The notes under the pieces: model-generated | Told to the model about the DNA's origin: nothing | Seen by the model: the letters and a program-made list of their open reading frames with translations, nothing else | The model's database searches: none | Part shown: one piece after another, positions 1,485 to 17,573 of the stretch | Layout: each line of letters starts with the position of its first letter | Position numbering within the stretch: position 1 is the stretch's first letter | Program-made: the position numbers and the translations under genes | Virus record (IMG/VR): IMGVR_UViG_2778260994_000001 | Reading direction: 5' to 3' (one strand) | DNA length: 64,000 nt | Source of the DNA: a virus | Taxonomy: Duplodnaviria > Heunggongvirae > Uroviricota > Caudoviricetes

Positions 1485-2677
1485 TAATCATCATCCCCGT
1501 ATAGCTTGCGGGTAACTTCTTCGTCTTCCTCCTCGTCTTCGTCCAGGTCTTGTTCCAGCCATGGGTCGTTTGATACACCTTCAGTATCAACATCTCCATA
1601 ACCGCCTGTATCAACGATATCGGCGATTTCTTCCCTACGCTGCTCAATCCACAATGCGGCATCGGCGCGGCGGTTGGCGGCCCGTTCTCGCGCAACTTTG
1701 TCCAGATCTTCAAGAGAAGGGCCACCGACGGCTGTTTGCCTTTCCTCATCATCGGTATTGGTCTTCGGAGCACGCAGATCGGCTTTGATTTGCTCCAGCA
1801 TCAGGGGCGGCACTTTCCCGCCATGCGCCTCGATGAATTCAGCTGCTTCCAGCACTGACCAGTTATTTTCACGCTTTCGTTCGTATGCCAGCTTAACAAT
1901 GCCAGCTTGCCCCATAGACAAAGCGTGCTTTTCCGCCTCCCGGCTTTCTTTTCGATAGTTATTCCGGATGCTGTAAATGGTGTTGATCAGGCTGCTTATC
2001 TGCGCGGAACAGCTGTTTAGCATGCTCGCGATACGGTATTCAGGCGGAGTACCTTCATCATCGTCCTTTTGCTGATCGCGCATTTCCTGCACCAGGCGAA
2101 TACACGTATCCCTGGCGTTCTCCAGCATAAGGAGATGAGAAAGAGACTTTTCAAGAAGAGTGGTTTCCAGAACATCGGCCCCGGACCGACGCAACATAGC
2201 GCGCGCGGCCTTCCGCGCTTCAACGTTATCTATCAGGTAATCGCCAGCTTCGAATTCAAAGCGTTCACCATCATCATCCAGGGTGTCGCGTTCCAGGCGA
2301 TCACGTAAGGTCCGGTGGGCGCGGGTGATCACGTCATGATCATCTGAACGATCATTTATGCGCTTATTTTGGCGCTTCGCATTCTCGACTGCGGCACTGA
2401 CAACGGCATTAACTCTCTGTTTTTCCGCTATTTCAGCCGCAATATGATCACCTGCATGTTGATCATTAGAGTGATCAATGATCATGCTTTTTAGTGGCTT
2501 CCTGACTGGCTTATTTGGCTTGCGGCTGTCCGCAGTCCTGGTGTCTTCTTTGAAGGCACGGAGATAACGACGTGCGGTATTAGGGTTAAGATTAAACTCG
2601 GCGGCATACTGTGCGATGGTGTAACCACCATCTCGCGCCAGGCGAGCAAAATTCTTTTTGTGATCGTCCCAGGTCAC
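1484..2677 (-). CDS. pacA: Terminase small/pac-recognition subunit PacA-like (397 aa)
   Basis: 397 aa ORF with N-terminal HTH-like segment ([20 protein letters not shown]), directly upstream of pacB; length matches P1 PacA as recalled. Confidence 0.8.
2299..2484. other. Candidate pac packaging site: two clusters of GATC-containing hexamers (TGATCA/CGATCA) inside pacA
   Basis: GATC at 2299, TGATCA at 2326 and 2337, CGATCA at 2349; TGATCA at 2445, 2460, 2472, 2479; P1 pac is known to be Dam-regulated hexamer clusters within pacA. Confidence 0.55.
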
Positions 2678-2762
2678 TTATGCTTCCTTTCGTAAAAACT
2701 CTTTTTGACGCGAGGGTAACGAAAGTCACATGTCAAAAGGCCCGGAACGGGCAAGCAATCAA

Positions 2763-3215
2763 TCAGATACGTGCGGATGTGGCATTACCGTAATGACGGT
2801 GCTGACGGGCCACCTTATTGAAAAGTTGACGCGCCATTACCCAAGGCTGGTGCTCCCGGCGTTCCTTTTCGTCCTGCGTCATATAGAGTTCGTTCTGGAG
2901 TTTTTCATCAAACCGGCGCGGAGCGCGGCTACGGCGAAAGAATTCAGGATTCAGAGAGTGGATCTGAAATCTACGTGGGCGTGTACTGTCATCAATCAAA
3001 ACAGACGAATACTTAGACACAGCGATAGCCTTTAAGCGCAGATAAACATCGCGCTTATCGACATCCAGATGCGGGTATTCCTTTTCAAGAATTGCTGCGA
3101 GTTCTTTCGCTGATAGAAGAGATTTAGTGCGGATCATGTAATCCGCAATCTCGTACGATGTTATTCGTGAGTGTTTTATTTCCATGAAGTGGCGTCCCTG
3201 CCAGTTAAGTAACAT
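2763..3215 (-). CDS. Hypothetical protein (150 aa)
   Basis: ORF between pacA and the doc-proximal genes; no recognisable motifs. Confidence 0.55.
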   Translation of the reverse strand: MLLNWQGRHFMEIKHSRITSYEIADYMIRTKSLLSAKELAAILEKEYPHLDVDKRDVYLRLKAIAVSKYSSVLIDDSTRPRRFQIHSLNPEFFRRSRAPRRFDEKLQNELYMTQDEKERREHQPWVMARQLFNKVARQHRHYGNATSARI

Positions 3216-3285
3216 CCTGTCACCTACTGATTAGCCCATGTCAACTAATCAACGTGGAATATAATACCCTCGATTAAAGAAATAG

Positions 3286-3302
3286 CAATACATTAGAGCA
3301 AT
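3286..3302 (-). promoter_or_regulatory. C1-operator-like 17-mer (ATTGCTCTAATGTATTG, 14/17 to consensus)
   Basis: Minus-strand match to ATTGCTCTAATAAATTT, located between two minus-strand genes. Confidence 0.4.
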
Positions 3303-3303
3303 T

Positions 3304-4347
3304 TTATCTAACGCTCGACGAGTGACTTGTGATAGCGCCGACTCCAAGCGCGTAATCAAAGAACAATCGTTGATGCATCGCCAGCCTACCGTGCGTCTTC
3401 TCCCAATTATCGCGGTCACGCTCAATATCACGCTGGCATGACTGGCACAGAGGAATTGCGTAAATGTCATGCGCGCATAATCGACTATGACGAACGATAT
3501 AAGGCGTAATGTGAGCGCCAGCTCCCGCCGCTCCACACCCACAGCATGGACGGGAAGCAACAAAGTCCATGTACTCAGGTAATTTTAGCGATTGCAGTTT
3601 TGGTATTTTGAAATGCGCCATGCCAGGGTCGGAGTCAACATCCACAGAGCATACTTTTGCACGCATCGGCGCGGCGCGTTCTTCCATCATCTGAACATAT
3701 GCTGTAGCGCGATCGTCATACGGGCGAATATCTGCCTCTTTCAGAGGTCCGCTATCCTGCGTTGCGGCTTTCATCTTATTTATTGATATACGGCAAACTT
3801 CTTCCGGCATCAGGTGCATCATGTTGCGCATGAAAGCCCACCAGCACAGTTCCTGAATACTTAAATCATGGCCATCTGAAAGCCCCATTTCCTGACGGGC
3901 GACATCCAGTATCCAGTTAACGCGATTATTATGCAGCGTTTCTTTCAGCTCATTAAAACCACGCATCCGGTAATGGTTATCGTGATGCCAGCACAACAAC
4001 ACCGCGCTATTGTCTCGTTCAGCGTGGACAATATGGTTGTCACACCAACTACGATCTGCGGCCTGGCATTGACCCTCTTTCCTACGCAACCACGCCACCA
4101 GCGCGTCAATTCCACCAATACGGCGAAACAGTTCATCGCTGTTAAAAAACGGCTGCAACGCCTCATTTGTTGCCATAGTTTGCTCGGAAACAACGAGGCC
4201 GTCGTCCATGTGCTCGATTAACTCACGCGGCACCGGCTCCATAATAAATTTACGGCCAGCCTCCACCAGCTTTCTGACTTCCTGATCCACTTTGAATGTG
4301 GCGACGCCAAGCTCTTTTTGTACAAAGGGAGTAATTACGGCTTTCAC
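3304..4347 (-). CDS. Hypothetical Cys-rich protein (347 aa), possible zinc-binding/HNH-like C-terminus
   Basis: C-terminal CCGCG...CAHD...CQSCQ cysteine cluster; function not assignable from sequence. Confidence 0.6.
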
Positions 4348-4558
4348 ATCACACCTTTCATCACTGATTGGGCTTTATCTGCTGCCCGGCATTCTCTGTT
4401 TAAGCACAACCATTTCCTGACGGCATAACACAGCAATAGCGGTCCTGGCACCAATTTGCTTACCAACCAGGTATTGCTTTACCTCGCGGCGACTCACGCC
4501 ATCAAGAAGCATCTTTAACGCTCTACGGGACAATTTGTTGTATTTACGTGCCATTGAT

Positions 4559-4939
4559 CTACTCCGCAGAACCATACAATCTACGTAACGTGGCGGCGAC
4601 AGTAGATACAGATATCTCTCCGGTCGCAGCCCCTACGGTAAGGTCTACCAGTTCAGGGGAGTCAAATACCTGCACCCCGTTACGGCGTAGAAATAACAGC
4701 GCACTGTTTAGCGCGGTACGCTTATTGGCATCATTGAATATATGCCCTCTCGCTGTAGCCACCAGGTAGGTGGCGGAGACTTCGAAAAGGTCGGTGATCT
4801 CTTCGTAGGCAACTCTGGCCTGAACTCTCCCGATAATGGCCTCTGCCCTACCCGGATCTGACATTCCCGGCAGGCCGCCGTAGCGGTTTATATTCGCATC
4901 ATGAAGCGCAATAAGTTCTTCCGGTGATATATGCCTCAT
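4559..4939 (-). CDS. doc: Doc toxin (Fic-family death-on-curing protein)
   Basis: 126 aa [22 protein letters not shown]...; near-identical to P1 Doc as recalled; start overlaps phd stop. Confidence 0.95.
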
Positions 4940-5166
4940 TATCGGTTAACCAGTTCCTTGTTGGTGGAGTCCAGGGTGTCAAACAGGGATGCAAATTCAG
5001 CATCCAGCGCCGCTTTTTTGTAGGCTTCGAAAGTAGCCTTGCTGACAATTACTGCTGGCTCACGGCCTCTGCGGGTGATTTCAACCTCTTCCCCGGCTTC
5101 AACATTGTTGAGCACTTCAGAAAGGTTGCCGCGCGCGGTACGGAAGTTAATGGATCGCATAAACAC
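4939..5166 (-). CDS. phd: Phd antitoxin (start may be the third codon, giving 73 aa)
   Basis: ...[47 protein letters not shown]...; matches P1 Phd as recalled. Confidence 0.95.
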
Positions 5167-5232
5167 CTCGTGTACTCGTTATGTGTACACAATTATAAAC
5201 TTCACAGGCATAAAGCACCAGCACTTTGCAGC

Positions 5233-5622
5233 TTAAATCACCGGACAATCATCAAATTCCCCACTTCGGGCATCATTGATGACATGAGTGATCACACCAA
5301 AAACAGCATTACTGCCCGTGTATCCATCGTCATCTACTGGTAACGCCTCTTTCTTCCCGGTGCTTAAATCCTCCAGGTGCTGGCGCGGATACTTCCTGTA
5401 TCTCTTTATGCGATATTCACCCTCCATAGCGCACACAAGCAGAGAACCATCAACCGGAGTAAGCGAGGAATCAACCACCAGCAAAGCACCCTGCAATATT
5501 CCCTCACGGTGATGGCTATCAGCTGCCCGCATGAAGTAGGTTGCTGATGGATGCCTGATTAGTTGCTGATCAAGAGAAATTCGGCTTTCAACATAATCCG
5601 CCGCAGGAGAAGGGAAGCCCAT
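5233..5622 (-). CDS. humD: UmuD'-like SOS mutagenesis protein (S24 LexA-like peptidase fold)
   Basis: 129 aa, UmuD-like C-terminal domain; GAGGTG RBS 9 nt upstream; LexA box immediately upstream. Confidence 0.85.
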   Translation of the reverse strand: MGFPSPAADYVESRISLDQQLIRHPSATYFMRAADSHHREGILQGALLVVDSSLTPVDGSLLVCAMEGEYRIKRYRKYPRQHLEDLSTGKKEALPVDDDGYTGSNAVFGVITHVINDARSGEFDDCPVI

Positions 5623-5641
5623 AGCGTTTTCACCTCAATAA

Positions 5642-5661
5642 TACTGTTCATTTATACAGTA
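5642..5661. promoter_or_regulatory. LexA (SOS) box in the humD / 5797 divergent region
   Basis: TACTGTTCATTTATACAGTA fits CTGT-N8-ACAG with flanking TA/TA. Confidence 0.7.
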
Positions 5662-5796
5662 TACATTAAAGAGACACCTTTGGTGCAAACGCGTTACGTA
5701 CATCAACAACCGCTGATGATTTTGTGCGCTTTGCTACTATTCATCACCAACGGATCAGCGTAACCTCGTTGCCAATCAGTTAATAAGGAATTAGCT

Positions 5797-6369
5797 ATGC
5801 CTAATCGCATTCCTCTCGATCCTGTATTGCCCAAAAATTTTGACTGCACTCCTAACGAGAAACGCTCTAAAGCTCAGCTGGACGCCTGGTGGGACCATCC
5901 CTATGGGGTTACAGAACATGACGGGAAAATTGTTGTTTATTGTCTGAATGGTGGCGCGTGGGACCGTCCATCCGTGCTTGGTTTGGCAAATAACTATGAT
6001 GAAGCCTGTGAACTTGCCGAAAGACAGCAGGCTAGATGGGTGAAAACACGGTCACAGCCGACATTCATGTTTTCAAAAGAACCGCCATTTATACTGGCGA
6101 GGATGCCGCAGCGACCGGATCATCAACAAGAAATTGTTGCTGAATTTTCCTCAAGGGATGAGATGAATCTCTTCTCATTAAAGCAGGAAGAAAGGGAGCG
6201 CGTCGAAGTGCCTCCAACTCTCGACCACAACCGGATGAACCTGGCCCAACTCGCCTGGTACAGCAAAGAATTAGAGATGTCTATTGCCCGACTTGAAAAC
6301 GAAAAAGCCGCTATCCAAGCCCAGCATGAAGCTGTCATTGCCAGGATACGAGAAGTTCAAAACGGTTAA
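5797..6369 (+). CDS. Hypothetical protein (190 aa), divergent from humD across the LexA box
   Basis: ATG with AGGAA RBS; C-terminal coiled-coil-like segment; occupies the position of P1 lxr as recalled. Confidence 0.6.
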   Translation: MPNRIPLDPVLPKNFDCTPNEKRSKAQLDAWWDHPYGVTEHDGKIVVYCLNGGAWDRPSVLGLANNYDEACELAERQQARWVKTRSQPTFMFSKEPPFILARMPQRPDHQQEIVAEFSSRDEMNLFSLKQEERERVEVPPTLDHNRMNLAQLAWYSKELEMSIARLENEKAAIQAQHEAVIARIREVQNG

Positions 6370-6375
6370 CTACCG

Positions 6376-6639
6376 CTATTTCTTTACGGCATCATCTTTC
6401 TGATATGCCGGATCGCTCCCTTTTGGCAACTGGAGGCTTAACTGCCGGTAGTGCCGTAGCCGTTCCATGAAATAGGTGCGCAGATTCTCTGGTTGCTCGC
6501 GGGCTACCTGTTCAGCTATGACAGGTATGTTCAATCGCTCTTTGTACGCCACACCGCTGGCAGCCAGATCAACGTTAACCTTATCCCGTTCTTCCTGACT
6601 TTTAGCTGCAATATTCCAATCGTACATATCAAATCCCAT
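6376..6639 (-). CDS. hot: Homolog of DNA polymerase III theta subunit (HolE)
   Basis: [43 protein letters not shown] aligns with E. coli theta as recalled. Confidence 0.8.
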
Positions 6640-7076
6640 CCAGAATAATTGAGTAACGACTATTATTTAACCAGCAAAGTAACTTTTAATTTTTTTTCTT
6701 CTCCCATTGATTTTTGTGCACAGCTTATCTGCCTTGCCGTGCGCAGAATCAACTTTTTTCTTCCTGATTTATCCACAAAGTTATGCACTTGCAAGAGGGC
6801 CATTTTCTAAATATTGTGATGTTTCACAAATGAAATGAATTTTGATTAATGAAGATAAGGAGAAAATTTGAGATGCAATCATGACGTTAATAGATAGGGT
6901 CTGCATTACAGACCCCACCCGCATCAAGGAATTAGCCGTTCCCTGATGTTGTTCCGAAAACATGTGCCGTAAGCTCACGTTAACGACTTTCTTTCACCGA
7001 ATCCAACTATATAAGGGTTGGGTTTCTACGTCAACGTGAGCAAGTGCTCCTTTACATTTGACAAGGAACCACCTTA

Positions 7077-7214
7077 ATGACTGCTTTTTTTCAGTTCCTG
7101 AGTGCATTTTTAGATGCGCCTGTTATTAGCCAGATTCTGGCTATTATCCTCATCATCGTTTTGATTTTGCTTTTAAGGTCAGTAAAAAATGGAATTATGC
7201 ACTGGCTTACTTAA
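7077..7214 (+). CDS. Small hydrophobic peptide (45 aa), candidate membrane peptide
   Basis: MTAFFQFLSAFLDAPVISQILAIILIIVLILLLRSVKNGIMHWLT; AGGAA 8 nt upstream; below ORF-track cutoff. Confidence 0.35.
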   Translation: MTAFFQFLSAFLDAPVISQILAIILIIVLILLLRSVKNGIMHWLT

Positions 7215-7289
7215 TGTTTCAGTGAAACATTAAAATCTCCTTGATGTGGAAACAATCATTTTCTGTATGTGCTGGTGGGTACCTGTAGT

Positions 7290-7640
7290 TCAGCTTTCGT
7301 TGGCATTTAACTTCGTCTTTGCTTTCTCCACCAGCAACTTCCAGATGCCTATTTCATTAGCAGCCGCCTTGATGGCGGCATAAAAAGCATCTTGCTGATC
7401 GTAACGCTGAATCTGTTTTTTCAGTTTTGCCTCCACCAATTTAATTTCATTACGTGCTTTCTGAAGCCGCCGCGCCGCCCGGTTACGTCTGTTCTTGTAT
7501 AGCGCGTTAATCTCTGACAATTGCTTTAATTTACCAGCCTGACTGCGGATTATCGCCTCTCTGACTTCTGCCGTGCGTCTCATCTGATCTCTTAAGAGTT
7601 CACCGTTTTCGATAATTCTTTCAAGGTGTTTGATGTGCAA
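7290..7640 (-). CDS. Hypothetical coiled-coil protein (116 aa)
   Basis: Charged heptad-like sequence; last gene of a co-directional cluster. Confidence 0.55.
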   Translation of the reverse strand: MHIKHLERIIENGELLRDQMRRTAEVREAIIRSQAGKLKQLSEINALYKNRRNRAARRLQKARNEIKLVEAKLKKQIQRYDQQDAFYAAIKAAANEIGIWKLLVEKAKTKLNANES

Positions 7641-7643
7641 CTC

Positions 7644-8576
7644 TCATACTTCACCCTCGCTTGTATCGCCAGCATCCACCAACGGCAATAAAGCCATGGC
7701 CATCTTATGAACCAACAGAGCATCGATAATGCCAAGCGTATGCCCCGGCTTAATGTTTAATGCCGCCTCAAGGTGACACCTTTCTAGGTCACTTTTCTCG
7801 GCTTGTTTATGATGATCTGGCGTAATAACGTCGCCCAAAACACGGCTAATTCTTTCTCGTAATTGCTGGGTGCCAGCACACTTGACCGCTGTATCGTGGA
7901 GGCGGTTAACCAGTTCGCGATAAACATGCGGCTTAATTCGGATACGTTCACCGGGGACGCCCTTTCCTTTCGCTGGCACCGAACTATCCGGAATGTCCGG
8001 ATAGTTGCCAGCCTCGTAAGCTACCCGCAGCCAGTGCATGAATGTTTCAGTGGACACACAACCACAGTCCACATCGATTTTCCCGCGTTGCTGTTCCAGC
8101 CATTGCCCAAAATCCAACCTGTAAGTCTTACTTTCAAGTTCATCACCATTGAACTCGACTTTCTGCGACGCTATGAGAGCTGATTCGTATTGTTCGCGAG
8201 TGACAACTGACTGGTATTCATCGCTATCAAGGTCACCAATTGGAAGCTCAATCTCACAACAAAAATTGCGCCCAAAGAAAGTGTCTTTTTTGTGGTCTGA
8301 GCCAAAAGCAAAAGTCGCGCATGGTGCCATTAAATTGACACTGGGTAGGTAACAATAACTCATTCCATCAGGCCACCCGCCGCACTTAGGCAGCTCCTTC
8401 ACTAACAAGTCGATAAGCTTCATTTTTTTATCATCTTTGCAAGCCGCCAAAGCCATTTGGGCAAGTGCCAATACTTCATCTGCCGTATATCCAGCACCGT
8501 GACCATACATTTCGATACGGGAAATAGTCTCTGATATACGCTCTTCAGTGATTCTGGTCATTTCTTTTTGCGCCAT
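7644..8576 (-). CDS. Hypothetical protein (310 aa)
   Basis: ORF tightly packed with neighbours; several Cys pairs; no recognisable catalytic motif. Confidence 0.6.
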   Translation of the reverse strand: MAQKEMTRITEERISETISRIEMYGHGAGYTADEVLALAQMALAACKDDKKMKLIDLLVKELPKCGGWPDGMSYCYLPSVNLMAPCATFAFGSDHKKDTFFGRNFCCEIELPIGDLDSDEYQSVVTREQYESALIASQKVEFNGDELESKTYRLDFGQWLEQQRGKIDVDCGCVSTETFMHWLRVAYEAGNYPDIPDSSVPAKGKGVPGERIRIKPHVYRELVNRLHDTAVKCAGTQQLRERISRVLGDVITPDHHKQAEKSDLERCHLEAALNIKPGHTLGIIDALLVHKMAMALLPLVDAGDTSEGEV

Positions 8577-8932
8577 TTCTTTTCACATTCCTTAGTCCAT
8601 TTTTCAATGTTCATTTTGGCAATATCAGTCATTCCATCACCTAAGAAATACTTTCTCCGGTATGTCTTGCACTTAAAACACACTACAACAGCCACCAGCC
8701 AGAAAATAAAAGGCCATACAGCAATACCAACGACAGCCGCGATAAAGCCCAATATCCATAAATGAAGCTCTCCAACTTCTGTTTCCGGCAATATTCTTAA
8801 AGAATTAAACAGCAGGCTGAACGAATGGTCGTATGCATTGGCAGTATAAGACATGCAATCCATATAATTAAAGTCATAGCCTGCGGCTGCCGCCCATAAT
8901 GGGCGGTCAAGAAAATGTTTTAGTGTCATCAT
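8558..8932 (-). CDS. Hypothetical membrane protein (124 aa), Lys-rich C-terminus
   Basis: Central hydrophobic stretch LWILGFIAAVVGIAVWPFIFWLVAVVVCF. Confidence 0.55.
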   Translation of the reverse strand: MMTLKHFLDRPLWAAAAGYDFNYMDCMSYTANAYDHSFSLLFNSLRILPETEVGELHLWILGFIAAVVGIAVWPFIFWLVAVVVCFKCKTYRRKYFLGDGMTDIAKMNIEKWTKECEKKWRKKK

Positions 8933-8938
8933 ATTAAT

Positions 8939-9232
8939 TTAAGGTTCAGACCAGTTATCTTCAATAGCAATGCTTAATCTTTGTAGCCATTCTGCTAATT
9001 TCAGCATTGCTTCTCTTTCGCTTAAACCACGAGGAAAATCATCAAGCGATATTGTTGGCTTGAAGCCCCCGTAATTATCCATTTCAACGGTCAGATTTTG
9101 CTCCAGTACGGTATTCCTTACGCGGCTATTGTGGCGAAGCAAATATACTGAACGTGATTTATTGGTTTTGTGGTCGAGCTGATATTCGGTAAGTATCATC
9201 TGGCTTTTGCCATGACTATTACCTCTCCACAT
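8939..9232 (-). CDS. Hypothetical protein (about 97 aa; ORF extends to 9328 if upstream Met used)
   Basis: The upstream extension overlaps a separate small hydrophobic ORF in another frame, so the internal Met is preferred. Confidence 0.5.
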   Translation of the reverse strand: MWRGNSHGKSQMILTEYQLDHKTNKSRSVYLLRHNSRVRNTVLEQNLTVEMDNYGGFKPTISLDDFPRGLSEREAMLKLAEWLQRLSIAIEDNWSEP

Positions 9233-9239
9233 ACTTACC

Positions 9240-9362
9240 TCACTTAATAAAACAACTCCATGCGTAGTTGATGATTTTTTCCCACGTAATATAAATCTGC
9301 ACTCCGGCAGTAAAACCAAAGCCAACAATTGCTGAAAAAATCAAAACATTTACTTTTGACAT
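9240..9362 (-). CDS. Small hydrophobic peptide (40 aa)
   Basis: MSKVNVLIFSAIVGFGFTAGVQIYITWEKIINYAWSCFIK, first ORF of the 7290-9362 cluster. Confidence 0.3.
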   Translation of the reverse strand: MSKVNVLIFSAIVGFGFTAGVQIYITWEKIINYAWSCFIK

Positions 9363-9410
9363 TATAAATTTTCTCTCGGTGTCGTAGGTGATAGCACCAT
9401 AATTGATAAT

Positions 9411-9662
9411 TTAGTGAGTTAGCAGTTCCATTTTTTGGATGATTTCCGCATGAGTATCATCGTTATCAACACTTAACTCGTTTAATGCCTCTCGCACCAC
9501 ATCAACTTCTTCTGGTTGGAAGAAATCATCTCGGTAGTCACCAAATAGAACCGAAACAAGCCTGCCACCAGCAACATCAAGATTGGCGCTAACAGGTGGC
9601 TCTTTACCATCCTCAAATTCGACTACAAAAGTTATTTTTCCCATCGTTACCACCAGCGACAA
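9411..9662 (-). CDS. Hypothetical acidic protein (83 aa)
   Basis: ORF only. Confidence 0.5.
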   Translation of the reverse strand: MSLVVTMGKITFVVEFEDGKEPPVSANLDVAGGRLVSVLFGDYRDDFFQPEEVDVVREALNELSVDNDDTHAEIIQKMELLTH

Positions 9663-9726
9663 ATTGAATACAAACCCAGTGCTGCCGCCATCACAATTCC
9701 TACCGTGGTGAATGCTTCAGGCCAGC

Positions 9727-10611
9727 TCATTGATTCACCTCCTGCGGCGGTTCTGGTAGCGGCATCCAGTGTGACGGTTTCCACGACGCACCAGGAATTA
9801 TCCACCCATCATTAGCGTCAGGATGCCCCGGGATGTAAGTAGCCCATTTCATTCGCCAGTCACCTTTCCTGTCAAACTCCACGGCAACAAGAACGGCTGT
9901 TTTGGTATTCGGCATTCGCTCACTACAGCTTATCCAACCATCCGGAGTTACCGGAACTTGCGGAATGGCTGTCTGCTCTCGAACGTCATTAGGCGCTATA
10001 GGTTCTGCTGCCAACTGACTGGCATATTTGTTAATGGTAACGATAAGCTCTTGCTCAGCCTCATCCAGACAATCACCGATACCTCGCCTGTCACCGTCAA
10101 AATCATCGAAATCGGCACGAATCTTGGCAACCTTCTGGATTGCGGACAACACCTCACTAGGAATTACCGGATAGTTGGTTGACGTTTCCGCGATTTCCCG
10201 AAAATTATTGGTTGACGAATTCTTGTTTTCCCGAAAGTTTCCGGACTGAAGCATGGCGGCGCGGCAGGCGTTCCAGCCATCTGCGTAACAATCTCTGTGT
10301 GTCTTGAAATATGTCACCGCCCTTGGCACATCGTTTACGTCTATTTCATCCGGCACAACCGGCGCGGGTGAGTCAGCATAAACAGGAATAACGTCCGGTT
10401 GCTCTTTATTGCTTTCATCCGTTAAAGCCCAGAATAATTTCCCGGCCGGATGTTTGAAAATATAAGCAACTGGTTCTGCTTCCAGTGATGCCAGCGCAAT
10501 TTTGTATACTTCCAGATCCATTTGTGCAGTTACTAAATCAGGATAACGATCCATAACCGTTATATTGCGCTTAATCATCTCTATTAATTGTTCTTTAGTA
10601 AAAGTGGTCAT
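9727..10611 (-). CDS. Hypothetical phage protein with DUF551-like C-terminus
   Basis: C-terminal GW...SHWMPLPEPP pattern; shares a GWNACRAAMLQ motif with the 10821-11216 product. Confidence 0.55.
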   Translation of the reverse strand: MTTFTKEQLIEMIKRNITVMDRYPDLVTAQMDLEVYKIALASLEAEPVAYIFKHPAGKLFWALTDESNKEQPDVIPVYADSPAPVVPDEIDVNDVPRAVTYFKTHRDCYADGWNACRAAMLQSGNFRENKNSSTNNFREIAETSTNYPVIPSEVLSAIQKVAKIRADFDDFDGDRRGIGDCLDEAEQELIVTINKYASQLAAEPIAPNDVREQTAIPQVPVTPDGWISCSERMPNTKTAVLVAVEFDRKGDWRMKWATYIPGHPDANDGWIIPGASWKPSHWMPLPEPPQEVNQ

Positions 10612-10621
10612 TCGTTATGCC

Positions 10622-10819
10622 TCAATACACAAAATCTGTTTTAAATTCATGGTTACATTCTGGGCAGCATGTTTCGTAACCTTTTATTTCTTCACATGCC
10701 TGTTTTGCTCCAGAAAATTCCCAGAAATCAGCATCGCAAAGCAGATCGAAATTGTGGCCGCATTTTGGGCATTCAGTATCAAGTGATAAACTCCAGTAAG
10801 CAGGTGTGTTTTTGTCCAT
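10622..10819 (-). CDS. Small zinc-ribbon protein (about 65 aa)
   Basis: CPKCGH...CCPECNH; internal Met at 10819 abuts the upstream stop. Confidence 0.5.
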   Translation of the reverse strand: MDKNTPAYWSLSLDTECPKCGHNFDLLCDADFWEFSGAKQACEEIKGYETCCPECNHEFKTDFVY

Positions 10820-10820
10820 A

Positions 10821-11216
10821 TCACTCTCCTTTCCCCTGAAGCATAGCGGCACGGCAGGCGTTCCAGCCTCTCACCTCTGCAATAGCGGCAACAGCATCAA
10901 CCGCGTACATGCTAAGAGGATTAGGCATTGGTTTTTCTTCCGGTACTACTTGCGCTGGAGGGGCGGCGTAAATACCCTCTATCACTAAATGTTTGCGCTC
11001 AAAATCATCTGGCTCTCGATGATATACGTAACTCCAATCACCAAGGTTATCATTGCGCCTGCAACGGAAACCTATCGGCTCGACTTCCAGCGCTGCCAGA
11101 GCAATTCGTGCCAGTTCTTCCGCTTCTTCTGCTGGCAGTACAACGTTGCTACCAGGTCCGTATGTTTCGCGCCACTGCTTGATTGTCAGTAGTCGCTCTT
11201 TGGTAATAGTGATCAT
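10821..11216 (-). CDS. Hypothetical protein (131 aa)
   Basis: Contains GWNACRAAMLQ motif shared with 9727-10611. Confidence 0.55.
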   Translation of the reverse strand: MITITKERLLTIKQWRETYGPGSNVVLPAEEAEELARIALAALEVEPIGFRCRRNDNLGDWSYVYHREPDDFERKHLVIEGIYAAPPAQVVPEEKPMPNPLSMYAVDAVAAIAEVRGWNACRAAMLQGKGE

Positions 11217-11728
11217 GCCGCGTTTCCTTCTTTCTTATTAACAATTACACCGTCATATATTTCATTAAGGTGCCCTCTCAACTCCATGCGCCTTAATGCA
11301 GATAACATGTAATCGCATTCAACCTGCTTATTTCCAGTAAATGGCTTATCGTCAGGATTCCCCCAACAGCAATTACCCTTGGGCCACCCATGTACTTTCC
11401 GTACTCTTCCGTTAACAACGTGAAGTAATCCCCAGCCAGGTGGTAAATCCTCAATTGAAATAATTCCCGGCTCACTAATAAAGAATCGCCAGTCGCCCAT
11501 TCCAAGAGACGGATTTTTACGAAAACGCTTTTTTCTATCTGCTAACAAGTCAGCACGAGAACACTTCGCTTCTATCAGGCATGATGCTGAATTTCTGAAT
11601 CCCATAGCATCTGGCTGTTCTCCGGTACTGGTTACAGCTATAAAGCGGTCATGAAAACAAACCTTGAACCCGTTGCGCTTAAGGAACTTATACGCAATCT
11701 GACAGAGTTCGCGGTGTGTTAACGCCAT
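11213..11728 (-). CDS. Putative PD-(D/E)XK-type nuclease-fold protein (about 171 aa)
   Basis: ...EQPDAMGF...CLIEAKCSRAD... fits a PD...(D/E)xK spacing; start taken at MALTHREL. Confidence 0.45.
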   Translation of the reverse strand: MALTHRELCQIAYKFLKRNGFKVCFHDRFIAVTSTGEQPDAMGFRNSASCLIEAKCSRADLLADRKKRFRKNPSLGMGDWRFFISEPGIISIEDLPPGWGLLHVVNGRVRKVHGWPKGNCCWGNPDDKPFTGNKQVECDYMLSALRRMELRGHLNEIYDGVIVNKKEGNAA

Positions 11729-12090
11729 ATCACTCTCCTTTAGTGCGCAAGTGGTTTTTCCAGCGGTTTTGCGCCGCGCTGGGCTTTTTGCAAAAACCAC
11801 AATCCATCATCCCGTAATATTTCATCAACCCCATCCGTCGGTTGCTGAGTCTCACCCACTGCCAGACGCCAGGAGCGTTTCTACGAACTAACAGAATCTT
11901 TGCTTTACGGTTTTTCATCGTTTTGCTCTCCTGCGTTTCTTTGCTTCGCGTCGTGCAGCCGCAATACCGGTATGGCGGCGCTTTGGTGCCGGGATGATGT
12001 TGTCAGCCATCAGGACATGCGGCTTCGCAATTAGCGCAGAAGCCCAAAAACGAGTCGGGTACGGTAACAAGCCGATACATGCCACACGCA

Positions 12091-12744
12091 TTACTCACCT
12101 CCTTTGATGCGAATGCCAGCTGCGCTTGCTGATTCTTCATATGCGCGTTTAGCAGCGTTAAGGATTGCTGCCAGTGGCGTATAGCCGCCATCCATTCGGA
12201 TTGTGTTGTGGATGCCAGCCATTGTGTCGCGCAATTTGCTGTGGCTAGCAGACAGTTCTGCTATGCGCTTCTCTGCGGATTCCAGCGCTGCAACCAATTC
12301 GTCTACAGTTCCGGCAGCTTGCAGTGCGTAATCGGTAATAGCCATCTCATGATCAATTTCAGTACCGTTCTCATTCGTTGAGGTGATAGCAAAATAATCA
12401 GAGTCGATTTCGTTATCAGCTAAGTGGCGTAGCGTATCGGCAACAAGCTGACCGTTTTCGATTAACAGCTTCCCTACCGTTAGCGCAATATCCTCGTTCT
12501 CCTGATCGCGGCGTTTTATGTATTGCTGGTTTCTTTCCCGTTCATCCAGTAGTGCCAAAGCAACCTTTGGATTAAAGGCGGCAATAAATTCAGCATTGTT
12601 TTTCAGAACGTGTTGCGCAATGGCCTGACTACTTAGTCGGACCTCATAACCACGTGCGCCACGGTGTGGTTTATATGAGTCCCAGTCTCCCCACGTTGCT
12701 TTCTCTGCCGCCTCACGCAGTGCCTGATAGTCAATCTTGCTCAT
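12091..12744 (-). CDS. Ead/Ea22-like family protein
   Basis: N-terminal IDYQALREAAEKAT and AFNPKVALALLDE motifs typical of Ead/Ea22-like prophage proteins. Confidence 0.6.
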   Translation of the reverse strand: MSKIDYQALREAAEKATWGDWDSYKPHRGARGYEVRLSSQAIAQHVLKNNAEFIAAFNPKVALALLDERERNQQYIKRRDQENEDIALTVGKLLIENGQLVADTLRHLADNEIDSDYFAITSTNENGTEIDHEMAITDYALQAAGTVDELVAALESAEKRIAELSASHSKLRDTMAGIHNTIRMDGGYTPLAAILNAAKRAYEESASAAGIRIKGGE

Positions 12745-13442
12745 TGGATGACTCCTTTACGAAGCTGTTCGGCGATATCTTCGAGAACGCCATCAGAGAA
12801 TGAGCGATCAAAATGGCTTTCCGGCGCATTAGCCATAAACTCAGTAGAGGTAAGAATCATCCGGGCAATATCCGCGGCGTTCTTCGCAGTATCATCAATA
12901 AAACCAGCTTTCCAGGCAGCCAACATTCTGTTCGCCACAAAATAAGCGCCTTCCTTGCGTGCTTCAGTCCTCCCTTCAGCCAGAAAAGCATCGGTTGCTG
13001 GGGTTTCGCTGTGGTGCAGGGCATCGTTGATAATCATTGCAGCAACTCCGGCCTGCCCTGCATCCGTGACCGACACATGCTCAAGAGTTACGGCCATTGC
13101 GTGTTTCAGCCCAGCGTTCTCTGCCACCAGCGCAGCGAGATTAGTCTCAAGCTCTGAAATTCGGCACGTGGCATCAATATTTGTGTCCTCCAAGCACTTA
13201 ATTTCACCAAGCAGCTCCAGTGCAACCTTTGGGTTGAACGCGGCAACATGACGAGCGTTGTTCTCTGCATTTTTCTGTCCATCAAAGCCGGTCCATTTGA
13301 TAACGTCTTCACATCGTTCATCACCGGGCGTGTGCACCGCATAAGTACCAGTATCCGTCGAAATAAATGCGACCCATTCGTCTGGTGTTGCCTTTTCTGC
13401 CGCCTCACGCAGTACCTGATAGTCAATTGTCATTCTCGCCAT
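12741..13442 (-). CDS. Ead/Ea22-like family protein (tandem paralog)
   Basis: MARMTIDYQVLREAAEKAT... and AAFNPKVALELL; paralog of 12091-12744. Confidence 0.6.
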   Translation of the reverse strand: MARMTIDYQVLREAAEKATPDEWVAFISTDTGTYAVHTPGDERCEDVIKWTGFDGQKNAENNARHVAAFNPKVALELLGEIKCLEDTNIDATCRISELETNLAALVAENAGLKHAMAVTLEHVSVTDAGQAGVAAMIINDALHHSETPATDAFLAEGRTEARKEGAYFVANRMLAAWKAGFIDDTAKNAADIARMILTSTEFMANAPESHFDRSFSDGVLEDIAEQLRKGVIQ

Positions 13443-14074
13443 CCTTCACAGTTGTAATCACTACAGCCTTCAAAATCATATGGGCTGTACTGCCAGGTGA
13501 TTTTTCCGCAATGCGGACAATTCCAACGCACCTTCCCGCTTCGCGACTTCTTTCTTCTGTTCTGCTCTTTCAACCAGTCAGGCATGACCAAACCTGCGCC
13601 CTGAACCATTGTTCTGCGGTTAAAGTTATTGATATTGAACGTCCGGCGCTTTGCTGCATCAGCAATGGAAAATGGCAACCAAACTATTCCTGGTTCGTTT
13701 TTGTTGGCGACGCTAAAGATGGTCGCTTTACTGAAGTCATCTGTTGGCAATCCACCGTGTTGAAGCCAGTAAACATCGTTGCCGTTCCAGCTACCTTTTT
13801 TGTAGGCCACATACGCAGTGCAATCTGACTCAATCAGGCTTTCTGTAGGGATGTACTGGCAATCAACGTGCCACACAGCCATTGCATCCACACTATCGGC
13901 ACAAACAGGCTGATCGATATCTCGCCCACAACTCCAGGCTTTTTGGGCTTCTTCCAGCGTGTAAACATGAGCGCGATCGATATCAGAACTGTAACCATTG
14001 CCGTTATGGCAATGGAATGAGGCGTTATTACCCACAGTTTCACGCAAGCACATCATGTAAAAACGGTTACTCAC
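13430..14074 (-). CDS. Hypothetical protein with C-terminal zinc ribbon (214 aa)
   Basis: C-terminal CPHCGK...CSDYNC. Confidence 0.55.
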   Translation of the reverse strand: MSNRFYMMCLRETVGNNASFHCHNGNGYSSDIDRAHVYTLEEAQKAWSCGRDIDQPVCADSVDAMAVWHVDCQYIPTESLIESDCTAYVAYKKGSWNGNDVYWLQHGGLPTDDFSKATIFSVANKNEPGIVWLPFSIADAAKRRTFNINNFNRRTMVQGAGLVMPDWLKEQNRRKKSRSGKVRWNCPHCGKITWQYSPYDFEGCSDYNCEGWRE

Positions 14075-14282
14075 TGGATGCCTCCCAGCAAATTTGTCTT
14101 ATATAAGAACTGTTAACGCGCTTTACTTTCCCGTCGAACTCCAGTTTCTTTAGACGACGCAAAACGTATGCCGTTTTGAGTGTGCGATATTTATCCCTAA
14201 GCCAGTTGGTCACGACGTAAGTCATACAGCGCCCGTGTTCTTCCAACACCCGAACTATTTCTTCGTCGGTTGGCTTGCTCAT
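14067..14282 (-). CDS. Hypothetical small protein (71 aa)
   Basis: ORF overlapping its neighbours by a few nt (operon-like packing). Confidence 0.5.
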   Translation of the reverse strand: MSKPTDEEIVRVLEEHGRCMTYVVTNWLRDKYRTLKTAYVLRRLKKLEFDGKVKRVNSSYIRQICWEASSE

Positions 14283-14500
14283 TTTGTCGCTCCTTCAGCT
14301 TTCTCTACTTTCGCTGCCATGATTTCCAGCTTTTGTGCTGCCGATGCCGCTAACCTGTGAAATTCTTCATCTGTTTCAACTGGAATTGGTACAAACCTGA
14401 CACCAATTTGAGCAAGGCTATGCGCCATTTCGAGACTTGCTCTTAACTCTGCTGGGGATGCTTTATTCAGGCCGACTTCCTCACAAATAACAGATTGCAT
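14279..14500 (-). CDS. Hypothetical small protein (73 aa)
   Basis: ORF only. Confidence 0.5.
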   Translation of the reverse strand: MQSVICEEVGLNKASPAELRASLEMAHSLAQIGVRFVPIPVETDEEFHRLAASAAQKLEIMAAKVEKAEGATK

Positions 14501-14509
14501 ACGCTCGCC

Positions 14510-15235
14510 CTACTGAATACGCTCAAACTCGATTACCCACACCCAGGGATTAGCGTTCCAGCTTTCTTCACCATAGATGGATTCCCACAGGCGCTGGAAC
14601 GCAACCTTGGCCATTGCGAAATCCCCCTTGGGAGTAAGGAATGTTCCCGGGTGATCAGGAAGCAAACTTCCAGCAGGCGGAACGCCCTCATCCCTTGCAT
14701 CGCATTCGCTGATATTGTTCAACCGCTCAACGCGCACGTTGGTAATTTCCAACAGGATGCGTGATGCCCATCGCGGCATGTGAATTGATGGACGCCACCC
14801 ACCATCAAACTTTTCATTCACAGTGTGAGGTTTCCAGTCGGCATCATCGGGTATCGACCATAAACCGTAATCACCAGGCTTTTGCTCACAACTGGCCCGA
14901 TAAATCCTTGCTGCGTTCTTCTCATCGCCACGACAAAGGTTGTCGTTCCAGTCCACACTGCAACCATCTTCATTGCCTAATATCGCCCATGTTTCACGAA
15001 CCCAAATTCGATCGCCGACGATACCAAAGGGGCAATTGAAAACACTGCTTACACCATCAGCCCCGTACCACTGAAAACCTGCACCAATTTCCCTAACCAT
15101 CACTGGTGCTTCTGGACCAACTTCCGCAGGCTGATTTTTCATTATCCGCCGCGTCTGCGTTTTCCTTCCTTCGAGGATGGCTCGGACCATCTCATCGTTG
15201 AAAATCATGCCGCGCTCTTTCACTTCGCCTTTCAT
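14510..15235 (-). CDS. Hypothetical conserved phage protein (241 aa)
   Basis: ORF with N-terminal FNDEMVRAILEGRKTQTRR segment; function unknown. Confidence 0.6.
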   Translation of the reverse strand: MKGEVKERGMIFNDEMVRAILEGRKTQTRRIMKNQPAEVGPEAPVMVREIGAGFQWYGADGVSSVFNCPFGIVGDRIWVRETWAILGNEDGCSVDWNDNLCRGDEKNAARIYRASCEQKPGDYGLWSIPDDADWKPHTVNEKFDGGWRPSIHMPRWASRILLEITNVRVERLNNISECDARDEGVPPAGSLLPDHPGTFLTPKGDFAMAKVAFQRLWESIYGEESWNANPWVWVIEFERIQ

Positions 15236-15244
15236 GCATCCCCC

Positions 15245-15331
15245 TTACCCATGCGCGACGATGCCGCCAAAAGTGATAGAGAACAGCCAGAAATAGATCG
15301 CGGCCATAATGATTTTGAATGCCGTGTTCAT
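15245..15331 (-). CDS. Tiny hydrophobic peptide (28 aa) with strong RBS
   Basis: MNTAFKIIMAAIYFWLFSITFGGIVAHG; AGGAG 8 nt upstream of the ATG. Confidence 0.35.
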   Translation of the reverse strand: MNTAFKIIMAAIYFWLFSITFGGIVAHG

Positions 15332-15360
15332 ATTTTCAGCTCCTGTGATTGATTGGATAC

Positions 15361-15390
15361 ATGCCGCGCCTTGCGGCATGTTTTTATTTT
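15361..15390 (+). terminator. Intrinsic terminator-like hairpin (plus-strand sense)
   Basis: ATGCCGC-GCCTT-GCGGCAT followed by GTTTTTATTTT. Confidence 0.4.
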
Positions 15391-15413
15391 CACTTTCTCT
15401 GTTTTAAAAATCA

Positions 15414-15430
15414 AGATTTATTAGAGCAAT
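15414..15430 (-). promoter_or_regulatory. C1-operator-like 17-mer (ATTGCTCTAATAAATCT, 16/17)
   Basis: Minus-strand match to ATTGCTCTAATAAATTT abutting the stop of the 15430-15936 gene. Confidence 0.5.
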
Positions 15431-15936
15431 TACTGTTGATGGAGAAGCGCGTTTTCATACTCCCTGACCATTAACGTAAGTACGCCGTGACTCCTGAAAA
15501 CACGCGCCACTTCAATCTTATCTTCCAGCGCGAACGCGATTTTACTTAGACCAATTTTCTTAAGGAGAGCAATCTTTGCTGGGCCGTCATTTCTGTCATC
15601 GGTGGCAGGACGCATAGATAGCAAAGGCTCAGCCCCGTTTGTTACGTGCTTACGCAACCAGGCTCGTGTTTTATCCCTGGCTATCTCACAGCGCCCGGTT
15701 ACAAACCAGACCGTGTAAACGTTAAATAACTGGCGCACCATATCAATAACTGGAGTGATGGGAGCATCAGTGTCACAGGCAAGGTTAAACTCGTTCCAGT
15801 GCTCTGTTAATGCACCTTTGCCAGGTGGTGGAAGCAAATGCAGCCTGTCTTCCGTTGCCTCTGATATCGTCCCATCAATATCGACTATGACGATATACGG
15901 ACGTTCCTGGTGTGCGTGTTTATTGAAAATACTCAA
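15430..15936 (-). CDS. HAD-superfamily phosphatase-like protein
   Basis: N-terminal IVIVDIDGTI (DxDGT motif I of HAD hydrolases). Confidence 0.65.
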   Translation of the reverse strand: MSIFNKHAHQERPYIVIVDIDGTISEATEDRLHLLPPPGKGALTEHWNEFNLACDTDAPITPVIDMVRQLFNVYTVWFVTGRCEIARDKTRAWLRKHVTNGAEPLLSMRPATDDRNDGPAKIALLKKIGLSKIAFALEDKIEVARVFRSHGVLTLMVREYENALLHQQ

Positions 15937-16009
15937 ATGCCCTCCTCATTGGACGAAAAAAATGCTGGTGGGACGCACTCCACCAGCATTAAAAGTGACA
16001 CTGTAACTA

Positions 16010-17272: not shown

Positions 17273-17273
17273 T

Positions 17274-17492
17274 TCAAAGTTCCGTATTAGCTTGTGCTTC
17301 GGTCATTTTTCCTAAGTATGAAGGTGGAAGGACTACGCAATTTGTATCCAGTCCCTCACCTATGGCAGCCTGTAAAATTCTGGCTAAGGTGAGTCTCTTG
17401 TTGCGATACCTGGTGATGACATGCCTGATACCGCCGGTCGGCGTAACAAAGGCGATCAGCCAGTAGTGATATTTCCGTCGGAATGGCCACAT
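17274..17492 (-). CDS. Hypothetical small protein (72 aa)
   Basis: ORF only. Confidence 0.45.
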   Translation of the reverse strand: MWPFRRKYHYWLIAFVTPTGGIRHVITRYRNKRLTLARILQAAIGEGLDTNCVVLPPSYLGKMTEAQANTEL

Positions 17493-17506
17493 AGTGCACC
17501 TTATAG

Positions 17507-17547: not shown

Positions 17548-17555
17548 AAAAATAT

Positions 17556-17572: not shown

Positions 17573-17573
17573 A

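Follow-up and report, generated by a model that had tools for sequence, protein, structure and literature searches.

Five uncharacterised genes of a P1-like phage-plasmid as the probable distal end of a C1-controlled early accessory operon

The window analysed here, a 64,000-nucleotide stretch of DNA, is that of a P1-like phage-plasmid, as judged by sequence comparison with P1, and the locus under study is flanked as in P1, with pap upstream and upfM/N/O, hot, lxr and humD downstream. Between positions 7,290 and 9,362 it carries, as the first-pass annotation had described, five minus-strand ORFs of 40, 97, 124, 310 and 116 aa; the spacings in this order are 7, 6, -19 and 3 nt. The earlier view of these genes as accessory and uncharacterised, within a variable part of a P1-type prophage, agrees with published comparisons that define the segment from pmgT to humD as variable region 8 of P1-like elements (PMC9603915).

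The promoter-proximal gene of the five (9240..9362, minus strand) encodes a 40-aa single-pass membrane peptide of phrog_5525, whose transmembrane segment was placed at residues 3-25 by hydropathy; copies of about 50% identity adjoin ea22/eaa genes in lambdoid phages. It is followed by the gene for a soluble 97-aa protein (8939..9232, minus strand), which matches phrog_1258 over its entire length (E=2e-49, residues 1-97 of 97) and belongs to the family of N15 gp44, with 55% identity over residues 4-97. Relatives of this protein are encoded by a nin-region ORF between ninF and HNH/rusA in mEp235 and SPN9CC, and its length is kept across genera in many Enterobacterales prophages. The family alignment of 39 sequences contains 17 invariant columns, structure prediction yielded a confident fold of a four-stranded beta-meander with a long C-terminal helix, and the dN/dS of the gene is 0.08. 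The 124-aa membrane protein of phrog_2638 (8558..8932, minus strand) displays a 39-residue hydrophobic block at residues 52-90 by hydropathy; its N-terminal part is acidic (net charge -4), and its C-terminal tail is basic (+8). Its family is characterised by conservation of the first 35 residues and by three invariant Cys, and homologues at 50-60% identity keep the length, the invariant Cys and the N-terminal motif (dN/dS 0.24-0.29).

The 310-aa protein (7644..8576, minus strand) is modular, comprising an Eaa-type N-terminal part (residues 1-45), an alpha/beta domain that was confident in structure prediction (~50-140), a “CGC” core (~140-203), and C-terminal helices of PmgU type (200-310). 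It matches phrog_60 (E=8e-20) and, with its N-terminus, phrog_3323, and the modules of both groups are common to the neighbouring 294-aa and 131-aa proteins. The core, of the form W...CGC...AYEAGN, was found in hundreds of representatives, with W159, C171, G172, C173, E177, Y187, G190 and N191 being near-invariant. In 22 of 64 relatives the core is followed by DUF551, and in 3 of the 64 its fusion partner is a Lar restriction-alleviation domain. A Pfam scan found no DUF551 (PF04448) in the 310-aa protein, which instead carries the PmgU-type C-terminus in that place. Furthermore, chimeric and truncated variants are frequent throughout this family; the dN/dS of the gene is 0.18-0.24.

The last gene (7290..7640, minus strand) starts with TTG at 7640 and encodes a 116-aa coiled-coil-like protein, the counterpart of P1 PmgV and P7 Upf90.8 (96-99% identity to these orthologues). 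A 5-nt deletion (GATCA) puts the ATG used by P1 pmgV (7647) out of frame. PmgV is proline-free, consists to 65% of E/K/R/Q/A/L and shows a hydrophobic periodicity of 3.5 residues; relatives with 36% identity occur in Klebsiella phages, and its dN/dS of 0.27-0.57 is based on few changes. With transmembrane segments in the 40- and 124-aa proteins and this periodicity in PmgV, the earlier description of two membrane proteins and one coiled coil is borne out.

Adjoining pmgV lies an AT-rich stretch (6640..7289, minus strand; GC 0.36-0.42) of about 99.6% identity to P1 DNA. It had been taken for a 650-bp intergenic region that the five genes follow, but it is located downstream, 3' of the operon, and it holds P1 upfM (6994-7107), upfN (6781-6978) and upfO (6663-6803), three predicted sigma-70 promoters, DnaA boxes, and the late promoter LPhot with its -22 box at 6685. 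The comparison with P1 upfM/N/O that had been suggested was nevertheless apt, with the pmg genes of P1 as the other point of reference.

Profile searches brought no functional assignment. None of the five proteins, scanned alongside five neighbours, matched a Pfam, NCBIfam or PADLOC family above threshold, so that the statement of the first-pass annotation that no motifs could be assigned stands with respect to these collections; it does not extend to PHROGs, which contain all five proteins, each in a group of no known function. PADLOC-DB v2 gave no match for four of the proteins, and the single match of PmgV, to PbeC (E=0.029, 11 bits), covered the coiled-coil stretch and was discarded as noise together with weak matches of PmgV to the exonuclease VII small subunit and DndD. 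Family profiles of the 97-aa and 310-aa proteins found nothing at E<=1 among all PDB sequences, and fold searches with the models predicted for the 97- and 310-aa proteins gave no assignment. An Rfam search of positions 6000-16500 returned no element at E<=0.1. The five ORFs are nonetheless real genes, each under purifying selection, because dN/dS is below 1 and the lengths are conserved.

Delimiting these five genes as a cluster proved to be an arbitrary cut, since the run of same-strand genes continues upstream as far as a C1 operator, with gaps of at most 84 nt. About 18 minus-strand ORFs, packed or overlapping, span the roughly 8.1 kb from this operator at 15430 to 7290, and the five are the promoter-distal end. 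The head of the operon (15386..15430, minus strand), which shares 96% identity with its annotated counterpart in P1, contains the PpmgT promoters and the C1 operator Op88/OpmgT, of sequence ATTGCTCTAATAAATCT at 15430-15414, which overlaps a sigma-70 promoter directly downstream of pap. According to the P1 annotation (NC_005856), Op88/PpmgT is an experimentally defined C1 operator, and in the P7 record this site is named Op(hea) and given as the regulator of a “hea operon”. A consensus scan of positions 6000-16500 found Op88 as the sole C1-operator-like site. The first ORF after the promoter (15245..15331, minus strand) encodes a hydrophobic peptide of 28 aa, MNTAFKIIMAAIYFWLFSITFGGIVAHG, preceded by an AGGAG ribosome-binding site; P1 carries an identical copy, which is not annotated there. 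Next comes a 241-aa PmgT-like gene (14510..15235, minus strand), intact in the window. The immediate upstream neighbour of the five genes is an 83-aa ORF of phrog_3876 (77 aa from its ATG; 9411..9662, minus strand; dN/dS 0.04-0.10), 48 nt from the 40-aa gene. Pfam matches within the operon comprise two Ead_Ea22 proteins, DUF1382 and DUF551.

Neither inside the operon nor upstream of the five-gene block did consensus scans find a further C1 operator, an Lpa late-promoter box, or a strong match to a sigma-70 promoter or terminator. These scans are crude enough to overlook a promoter in the short spacers of 48 and 64 nt that precede the 40- and 83-aa genes, and they are not of a kind to prove co-transcription. 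What they did detect within the operon was limited to terminator-like hairpins, all weak, and a single weak promoter-like site inside the DUF551 gene.

Comparison of P1 with the window by blastn revealed that a segment of 6,521 bp (8020..14540) is missing from P1, its endpoints falling within the 310-aa and 241-aa genes. This segment contains the DUF1382 gene, two Ead/Ea22-like genes, the 195-aa, 131-aa, Zn-ribbon, DUF551 and 83-aa genes, and further the 40-, 97- and 124-aa genes with the 5' 60% of the 310-aa gene. The P1 junction reads GTAA/CCCAGGG with 1 nt of microhomology, and it was found in only 5 PLSDB plasmids versus 252 with intact sequence. A clean 6.5-kb deletion explains the chimeric pmgT and truncated pmgU of P1: PmgT corresponds to the first ~231 codons of the 241-aa gene, joined to the 310-aa gene in a different reading frame, and PmgU to the last 111 aa (200-310) of the 310-aa protein. 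On the strength of this sequence comparison, pmgT and pmgU of P1 are deletion scars. The possibility raised in the first-pass annotation that all five products are conserved P1 backbone proteins with morphogenetic roles does not hold, as P1 has no more of them than PmgV and the C-terminal third of the 310-aa protein.

Outside P1-like elements the five families are not linked, and inside these elements they assort independently of one another. Families of the set are found apart from each other in N15-like, lambdoid, P22-like, Proteus and Klebsiella phages, and 124-aa homologues reside in early operons of N15-like elements without the other four genes. There, a gene of 79-80 aa overlaps the 124-aa homologue and was considered as a possible 97-aa homologue, which would have meant a conserved pair, but it is not a diverged member of that family (E>0.2). 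Among P1-like elements, P7 possesses the 310-aa family and PmgV and lacks all three small genes, and in pHS30-1 pmgV is missing and the 97- and 124-aa genes are separated by an additional gene. Different pieces of the locus were found in 310, 200, 252 and 109 PLSDB records, and the locus is nearly unchanged in more than 100 sequenced P1-like plasmids of Escherichia and Salmonella. Many plasmids with the locus carry resistance genes.

The closest known system is the pmgT-pmgU-pmgV region of P1 or the “hea operon” of P7 (upf86.8 ... upf89.5, upf90.8), which has the same replicon type, promoter, operator and flanks. P1 differs by its lack of the 40-, 97- and 124-aa genes and of the 5' part of the 310-aa gene, P7 by its lack of the three small genes and by Upf89.5, a length variant of the 310-aa protein that in P7 takes the form of a 432-aa chimera, and the window by its 5-nt lesion at the 5' end of pmgV. 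A second likeness is to the ea/exo-xis and nin regions of lambdoid phages, which hold Ead/Ea22, DUF1382 and DUF551 families also present in the window operon and consist of small, dense, non-essential and mosaic genes. Lambdoid Eaa/DUF551 proteins have the N-terminal and core modules in common with the 310-aa protein, in which a PmgU-type C-terminus replaces DUF551. However, the lambdoid regions are controlled by N antitermination from pL/pR, whereas the window operon is under P1 C1 control. In N15-like elements, which are linear phage-plasmids, 124-aa homologues of the same length and 50-55% identity lie downstream of Q, in an accessory stretch that also encodes an RNase T-like exonuclease, Dam and DinI; the 97- and 124-aa families are found there in different genomes and non-adjacent, and the other three genes are absent. 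By its gene content, the operon is a patchwork of ea/exo-xis, nin and N15-like early families.

Taken together, the five ORFs are probably the tail of a C1-controlled early accessory operon, known as “pmgT” in P1 and “hea” in P7. Genes behind a C1-repressed promoter should be off in the lysogen, and the sequence together with the P1 and P7 annotation predicts that these five would be silent there. Once infection or induction lifts C1 repression, a single early polycistronic mRNA would be produced from PpmgT, and translation may be coupled at the short gaps and overlaps. The 40- and 124-aa products are predicted to reside in the inner membrane, and the 97-aa protein, the Eaa-type 310-aa protein and PmgV in the cytoplasm. 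Judging from location and analogy, the products may work independently of one another, as non-essential accessories that modulate the host or counter its defences. In P1, transcripts of pmgT, pmgU and pmgV were measured 10-20 min into P1vir infection, and the three genes, pmgT and pmgU being scarred copies, are dispensable for plaque formation in laboratory E. coli according to single-gene knockouts and CRISPRi (PMC10695390, PMC9024508).

Other roles have to be weighed against this operon-tail reading. The presence of two small membrane proteins within an accessory region that is a recognised hot-spot of variation in P1-like elements brings to mind defence or superinfection exclusion, in which the membrane pair and its soluble partners would block incoming phage DNA or abort infection and so protect the host of the plasmid prophage. 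Exclusion proteins already known, among them T4 Imm and Sp, lambda SieB and P22 SieA, are small and membrane-bound, and the likeness to these and to P1 Sim is that of small accessory membrane proteins; no sequence or profile similarity was detected, and the position of the window genes does not suggest expression in the lysogen. Being subject to C1, with no promoter of their own detected, they should be off in the protected lysogenic state, and neither the lack of PADLOC matches (bar the coiled-coil noise) nor the independent assortment of families that do not co-occur outside P1-like elements fits such a module. The proposal of a self-contained membrane-plus-soluble operon for defence or exclusion finds no support, as no promoter, C1 operator or late promoter belonging to the block itself was detected. 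Nothing points to such a function of the 40- and 124-aa proteins, for which we consider it improbable, as is a defence role for the group. Participation in head or tail assembly, implied by the “pmg” names, is very improbable. It derives from the P1 annotation of pmgT, pmgU and pmgV as of “putative morphogenetic function” and from the genome region shared with the essential pmgR, but the label is contradicted by the knockouts and CRISPRi, P1 forms virions despite a truncated pmgU and the loss of 6.5 kb of the operon, and the paper on the P1 virion proteome does not mention the three proteins in its main text. Furthermore, the relatives are located in early regions (ea, nin, N15 early), not in structural modules. 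The five products appear to be neither a lysogen-protecting defence module nor virion-assembly factors.

Similarly remote is the view of the ORFs as non-functional, decaying remnants swept along by recombination. The loss of the pmgV ATG in the window, the frequent chimeras and truncations of the 310-aa family and the scars in P1 would suit it, but dN/dS values that are all below 1, and well below it for the 97- and 310-aa genes, the constant length and confident fold prediction of the 97-aa protein, and the features retained by divergent 124-aa homologues argue against decay. Counter-defence or host takeover, with the distal hea/pmgT genes inhibiting restriction, abortive infection, division or replication early in lytic growth, is unlikely. 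The early, repressor-controlled placement, the rapid shuffling and presence/absence variation of modules, the Lar fusion of the core in a few relatives of the 310-aa protein, and relatives in ea and nin regions, home of other host-modulating genes, are consistent with it. On the other hand, neither homology nor a fold match to known anti-defence proteins was found, and P1 pmg/upf knockouts without plaquing defect were unchanged in antirestriction activity, a result that concerns P1's scarred genes only. A more specific version, which we hold to be doubtful, would have the distal operon of wild P1-type phage-plasmids, most of which is deleted in laboratory P1, as an early-expressed counter-defence or host-takeover island, whose membrane proteins would hit membrane-associated host functions and whose 310-aa family would diversify by domain swapping in an arms race.

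Returning to the operon tail, the locus is an ordinary variable accessory region, in which no new mechanism was found and which holds no surprise for phage genomicists. The main gain is a correct annotation of a locus otherwise labelled “hypothetical” or, via P1, “morphogenetic”: the five genes are clarified as the probable tail of a repressor-controlled early accessory operon, and pmgT and pmgU of P1 as artefacts of a rare deletion. The 97-, 124- and 310-aa families are those worth testing in wild-type elements. If the distal operon were indeed a counter-defence island, the targets of the 40- and 124-aa proteins might be systems of exclusion or abortive infection, or alternatively the division machinery, and the laboratory reference phage would represent that part of P1 biology poorly.

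The five minus-strand ORFs, encoding 40 aa (9240-9362), 97 aa (8939-9232), 124 aa (8558-8932), 310 aa (7644-8576), and 116 aa (7290-7640), were all found at the sizes claimed in the first-pass annotation, with spacings of 7, 6, -19, and 3 nt between them. However, the five-gene cluster they had been taken to form has no boundaries of its own, as the run of same-strand ORFs extends upstream with a largest gap of 84 nt. In order from the five genes, this run includes an 83-aa gene, a DUF551 protein, a zinc-ribbon protein, and proteins of 131 aa and 195 aa, and further upstream two Ead/Ea22-like proteins, a DUF1382 protein, and a 241-aa PmgT-like protein (14510-15235), all on the minus strand. 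The promoter region at its end is 96 % identical to P1 PpmgT and carries the C1 repressor operator Op88 (15430-15414); the curated P7 record describes the same site as “Op(hea); predicted to regulate expression of hea operon”. Within 6000-16500, Op88 is the sole C1-operator-like site and LPhot at 6685 the sole P1 late-promoter box, while consensus scans revealed no convincing promoter or terminator inside the operon or before the five genes, and Rfam no element in the same interval. We consider it likely that the five genes form the promoter-distal part of a C1-repressed early accessory operon, which is a structural and regulatory reading.

Several further features were noticed along the operon. 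Between Op88 and the pmgT-like gene lies an unannotated hydrophobic 28-aa ORF (15245-15331, minus strand; MNTAFKIIMAAIYFWLFSITFGGIVAHG) with an AGGAG ribosome-binding site, whose P1 copy is identical and likewise without annotation. A GC-rich hairpin at 15359-15381 (ACATGCCGCAAGGCGCGGCATGT), located between PpmgT and the first ORF, has a T-run on the plus strand only and is therefore no obvious terminator for the operon; a 5' stabiliser, an attenuator, or a terminator of opposing transcription are candidate roles. The 195-aa protein (11213-11800, minus strand) matches phrog_9263 and phrog_631 with E down to 1e-124 and, weakly, phrog_5429 “DNA repair protein” (E=0.004), its Pfam search being empty.

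The 650-bp intergenic region previously thought to precede the cluster is indeed AT-rich (6640-7289, GC 0.36-0.42), but it lies downstream of the minus-strand genes and is gene-bearing, consisting of P1 DNA with upfM, upfN, upfO, predicted promoters, DnaA boxes, and LPhot. Here, a strongly hydrophobic 45-aa ORF (7077-7214, plus strand; MTAFFQFLSAFLDAPVISQILAIILIIVLILLLRSVKNGIMHWLT) runs convergent to pmgV and overlaps upfM. Frameshifted in vB_EcoM-813R1 but intact in P1, P7, MH422554, and the E. fergusonii plasmid, it has no P1 annotation and represents a candidate small membrane peptide gene. A perfect 10-bp palindrome at ~7212-7232 (TAATGTTTCA-C-TGAAACATTA), ~60 nt 3' of the pmgV stop, overlaps the P2upfM promoter predicted in P1; as no T-run follows, it may be a protein-binding site.

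In nucleotide comparison, 6600-9800 matched P1-type phage-plasmids, with the Escherichia fergusonii IncY plasmid pRHB23-C02_3 at 99.5 %, over 100 plasmids of E. coli and Salmonella at ~98 %, phage vB_EcoM-813R1 at 98 %, and Salmonella phage SJ46 at 97 %, and P1 itself matching at 99.6 % over the first 1,420 bases. Both flanks consist of P1 genes, one of humD, lxr, and hot and the other of pap, pmgS, and pmgR. The locus is one of the ordinary variable accessory regions of this well-known phage-plasmid type and is almost the same in more than 100 public records.

The 116-aa ORF corresponds to PmgV at 99 % identity. Right behind the P1 pmgV ATG, a 5-nt deletion (GATCA, holding a Dam site; 7640-7647, minus strand) is present in the window and in pRHB23-C02_3 and not in P1 or vB_EcoM-813R1; the P1-type ATG is therefore out of frame, leaving TTG 7640 as the sole possible start. 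P1 PmgU equals the final 111 aa of the 310-aa ORF, every residue matching. By blastn, the P1 region aligned in two collinear blocks (P1 locus 1-5425 to window 2600-8019, and 5425-9425 to 14541-18542), and therefore 8020-14540 (6,521 bp; junctions at 8019/8020 and 14540/14541) is missing from P1, whose own junction reads GTAA|CCCAGGG with 1-nt microhomology. One endpoint falls inside the 241-aa gene, 30 nt before its end (in the window, the gene ends in frame, “...NPWVWVIEFERIQ*”), and the other in the 310-aa gene at codon ~186. Thus, the reading frame of the 309-aa P1 PmgT covers the ~231 first codons of the 241-aa gene and then crosses, out of frame, to the 310-aa gene, whose orphaned 3' end is pmgU. 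According to the P1 annotation, PmgT resembles its Salmonella Typhi homologue only up to residue ~239. P7 is contiguous at the junction point, and a 200-bp probe across the P1 junction, with a full match required, found the P1 type in only 5 PLSDB plasmids, versus 252 plasmids contiguous at the same point of the 310-aa gene. The P1 arrangement is the rare, derived one. A 2022 survey (PMC9603915) lists pmgT-humD simply as “variable region 8”, with pmgT “replaced” in one plasmid.

The 310-aa protein is itself modular. Its relatives, 195-432 aa long, differ from one another in entire blocks: an N-terminal module (phrog_60, phrog_3323), a middle block (residues ~46-147), a core (~140-203; “LDFGQWLEQQRGKIDVDCGCVSTETFMHWLRVAYEAGN”), an optional block (205-260), and a conserved, helical C-terminal part. 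The N-terminal module recurs in three paralogous genes of the operon (7644-8576, 9727-10611, and 10821-11216, minus strand), the latter two encoding the adjacent 294-aa DUF551 protein and the 131-aa protein, which also share the linker motif “GWNACRAAMLQ”. A 432-aa variant of the P7 Upf89.5 type, from a cluster found on 257 contigs, combines sequences of the 131-aa, 294-aa, and 310-aa ORFs in one chimera, indicating recombination between paralogous modules that is, by implication, frequent. An exhaustive search returned 580 representatives, most matching the core alone, and among 64 aligned relatives 22 had DUF551 behind the core, 3 had a Lar restriction-alleviation domain, and 1 had Ead/Ea22. 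The protein is therefore of the Eaa/DUF551 modular type, but without DUF551 itself.

By their distribution, the five genes do not form a set. The 124-aa membrane protein has few relatives (16 clusters), and its homologues at 50-55 % identity occur in elements that encode a primase of 1,323 aa, a CI-like repressor, and a Q antiterminator and are, from this gene content, probably N15-like; there the gene is accompanied by RdgC, an RNase T-like exonuclease, Dam, and DinI, and the other four genes are missing from its vicinity. The 97-aa protein belongs to the N15 gp44 family, also represented in phiKO2, and in mEp235 and SPN9CC it is an unnamed ORF between ninF and HNH/rusA. In Proteus phages with members of both the 97-aa and the 124-aa family, ~6 kb separates the two genes. 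Relatives of the 40-aa peptide (~50 % identity) adjoin ea22/eaa genes in lambdoid phages, and those of PmgV in Klebsiella phages share 36 % identity. Within P1-like elements too, each gene varies in presence on its own. In P7, the 310-aa family and PmgV are present and all three small genes absent, and some plasmids carry the 97-aa gene alone. In pHS30-1 (NZ_CP147010.1, 1434-3399), a further arrangement of this distal slot, the 97-aa and 124-aa genes are separated by an inserted 54-aa gene, the member of the 310-aa family has 249 aa, and an unrelated 88-aa gene takes the place of pmgV. Across PLSDB, the three-small-gene block occurs in 310 records, pmgV in 200, the intact middle of the 310-aa gene in 252, and the whole of 6600-9800 in 109.

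That the ORFs are junk is very improbable, as it is contradicted by dN/dS and conserved lengths. Against copies 92-98 % identical in nucleotides, the 97-aa gene had a dN/dS of 0.08, the 310-aa gene one of 0.18-0.24, and the 124-aa gene one of 0.24-0.29, with 0.27-0.57 for pmgV from few substitutions. The 97-aa length is constant in dozens of prophage copies at 50-70 % identity (Klebsiella, Citrobacter, Salmonella, Erwinia), and the 124-aa family, at 50-60 % identity, retains its length, an N-terminal motif, and three invariant cysteines; the ORFs are real genes. A morphogenetic role, as the “putative morphogenetic” label of pmgT/U/V would imply, is equally improbable and is contradicted by knockouts. 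Only PmgV and, as PmgU, the C-terminal third of the 310-aa protein represent the five in P1, and among 29 single-gene knockouts of pmg/upf genes, infectious virions needed only pmgA, B, C, G, and R, the remaining 24 having no plaquing defect and unchanged antirestriction (Gonzales et al. 2022, PMC9024508). Since pmgT, pmgU, and pmgV are non-essential by that survey and by CRISPRi (Piya et al. 2023, PMC10695390), the label is unsupported. In a 2025 preprint, pmgT/U/V transcripts are reported to change at 10-20 min of P1vir infection. P1 itself shows most of the operon to be dispensable.

The first-pass suggestion of a defence or exclusion module, here protecting the lysogen, drew on the mixture of membrane and soluble products. 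The 40-aa peptide indeed has a single hydrophobic segment (residues 3-25, by hydropathy), and the 124-aa protein a hydrophobic block of 39 residues (52-90), preceded by an acidic N-terminal part and followed by a strongly basic tail, while the proline-free, E/K/R/Q/A/L-rich 116-aa protein shows heptad-type periodicity. We regard such a module as improbable, as profile matches and linkage are absent and no convincing promoter of its own was seen. No assignable motifs had been reported, and Pfam, NCBIfam, and PADLOC scans were empty above threshold, but every one of the five proteins matches a PHROG, albeit of unknown function; sequence-profile searches of PDB with the 97-aa and 310-aa families were both empty. 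A specific counter-defence island, a sharper version of our main reading, is somewhat less doubtful, though still unlikely, its basis being location, variability, and the rare Lar fusions.

In the accessory operon that we favour, C1 would repress transcription in the lysogen, keeping the five genes silent, and infection or induction would switch the operon on, with the five genes co-transcribed. It would be filled with small, individually mobile, non-essential genes like those of the ea/nin regions of lambdoid phages and the early operons of N15-like elements. The products of the five, two membrane-located and three cytoplasmic, may act separately on the host in host-modulating or counter-defence roles. 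As a by-product, pmgT and pmgU of P1 can be recognised as deletion scars, and the five genes are given their correct operon context.
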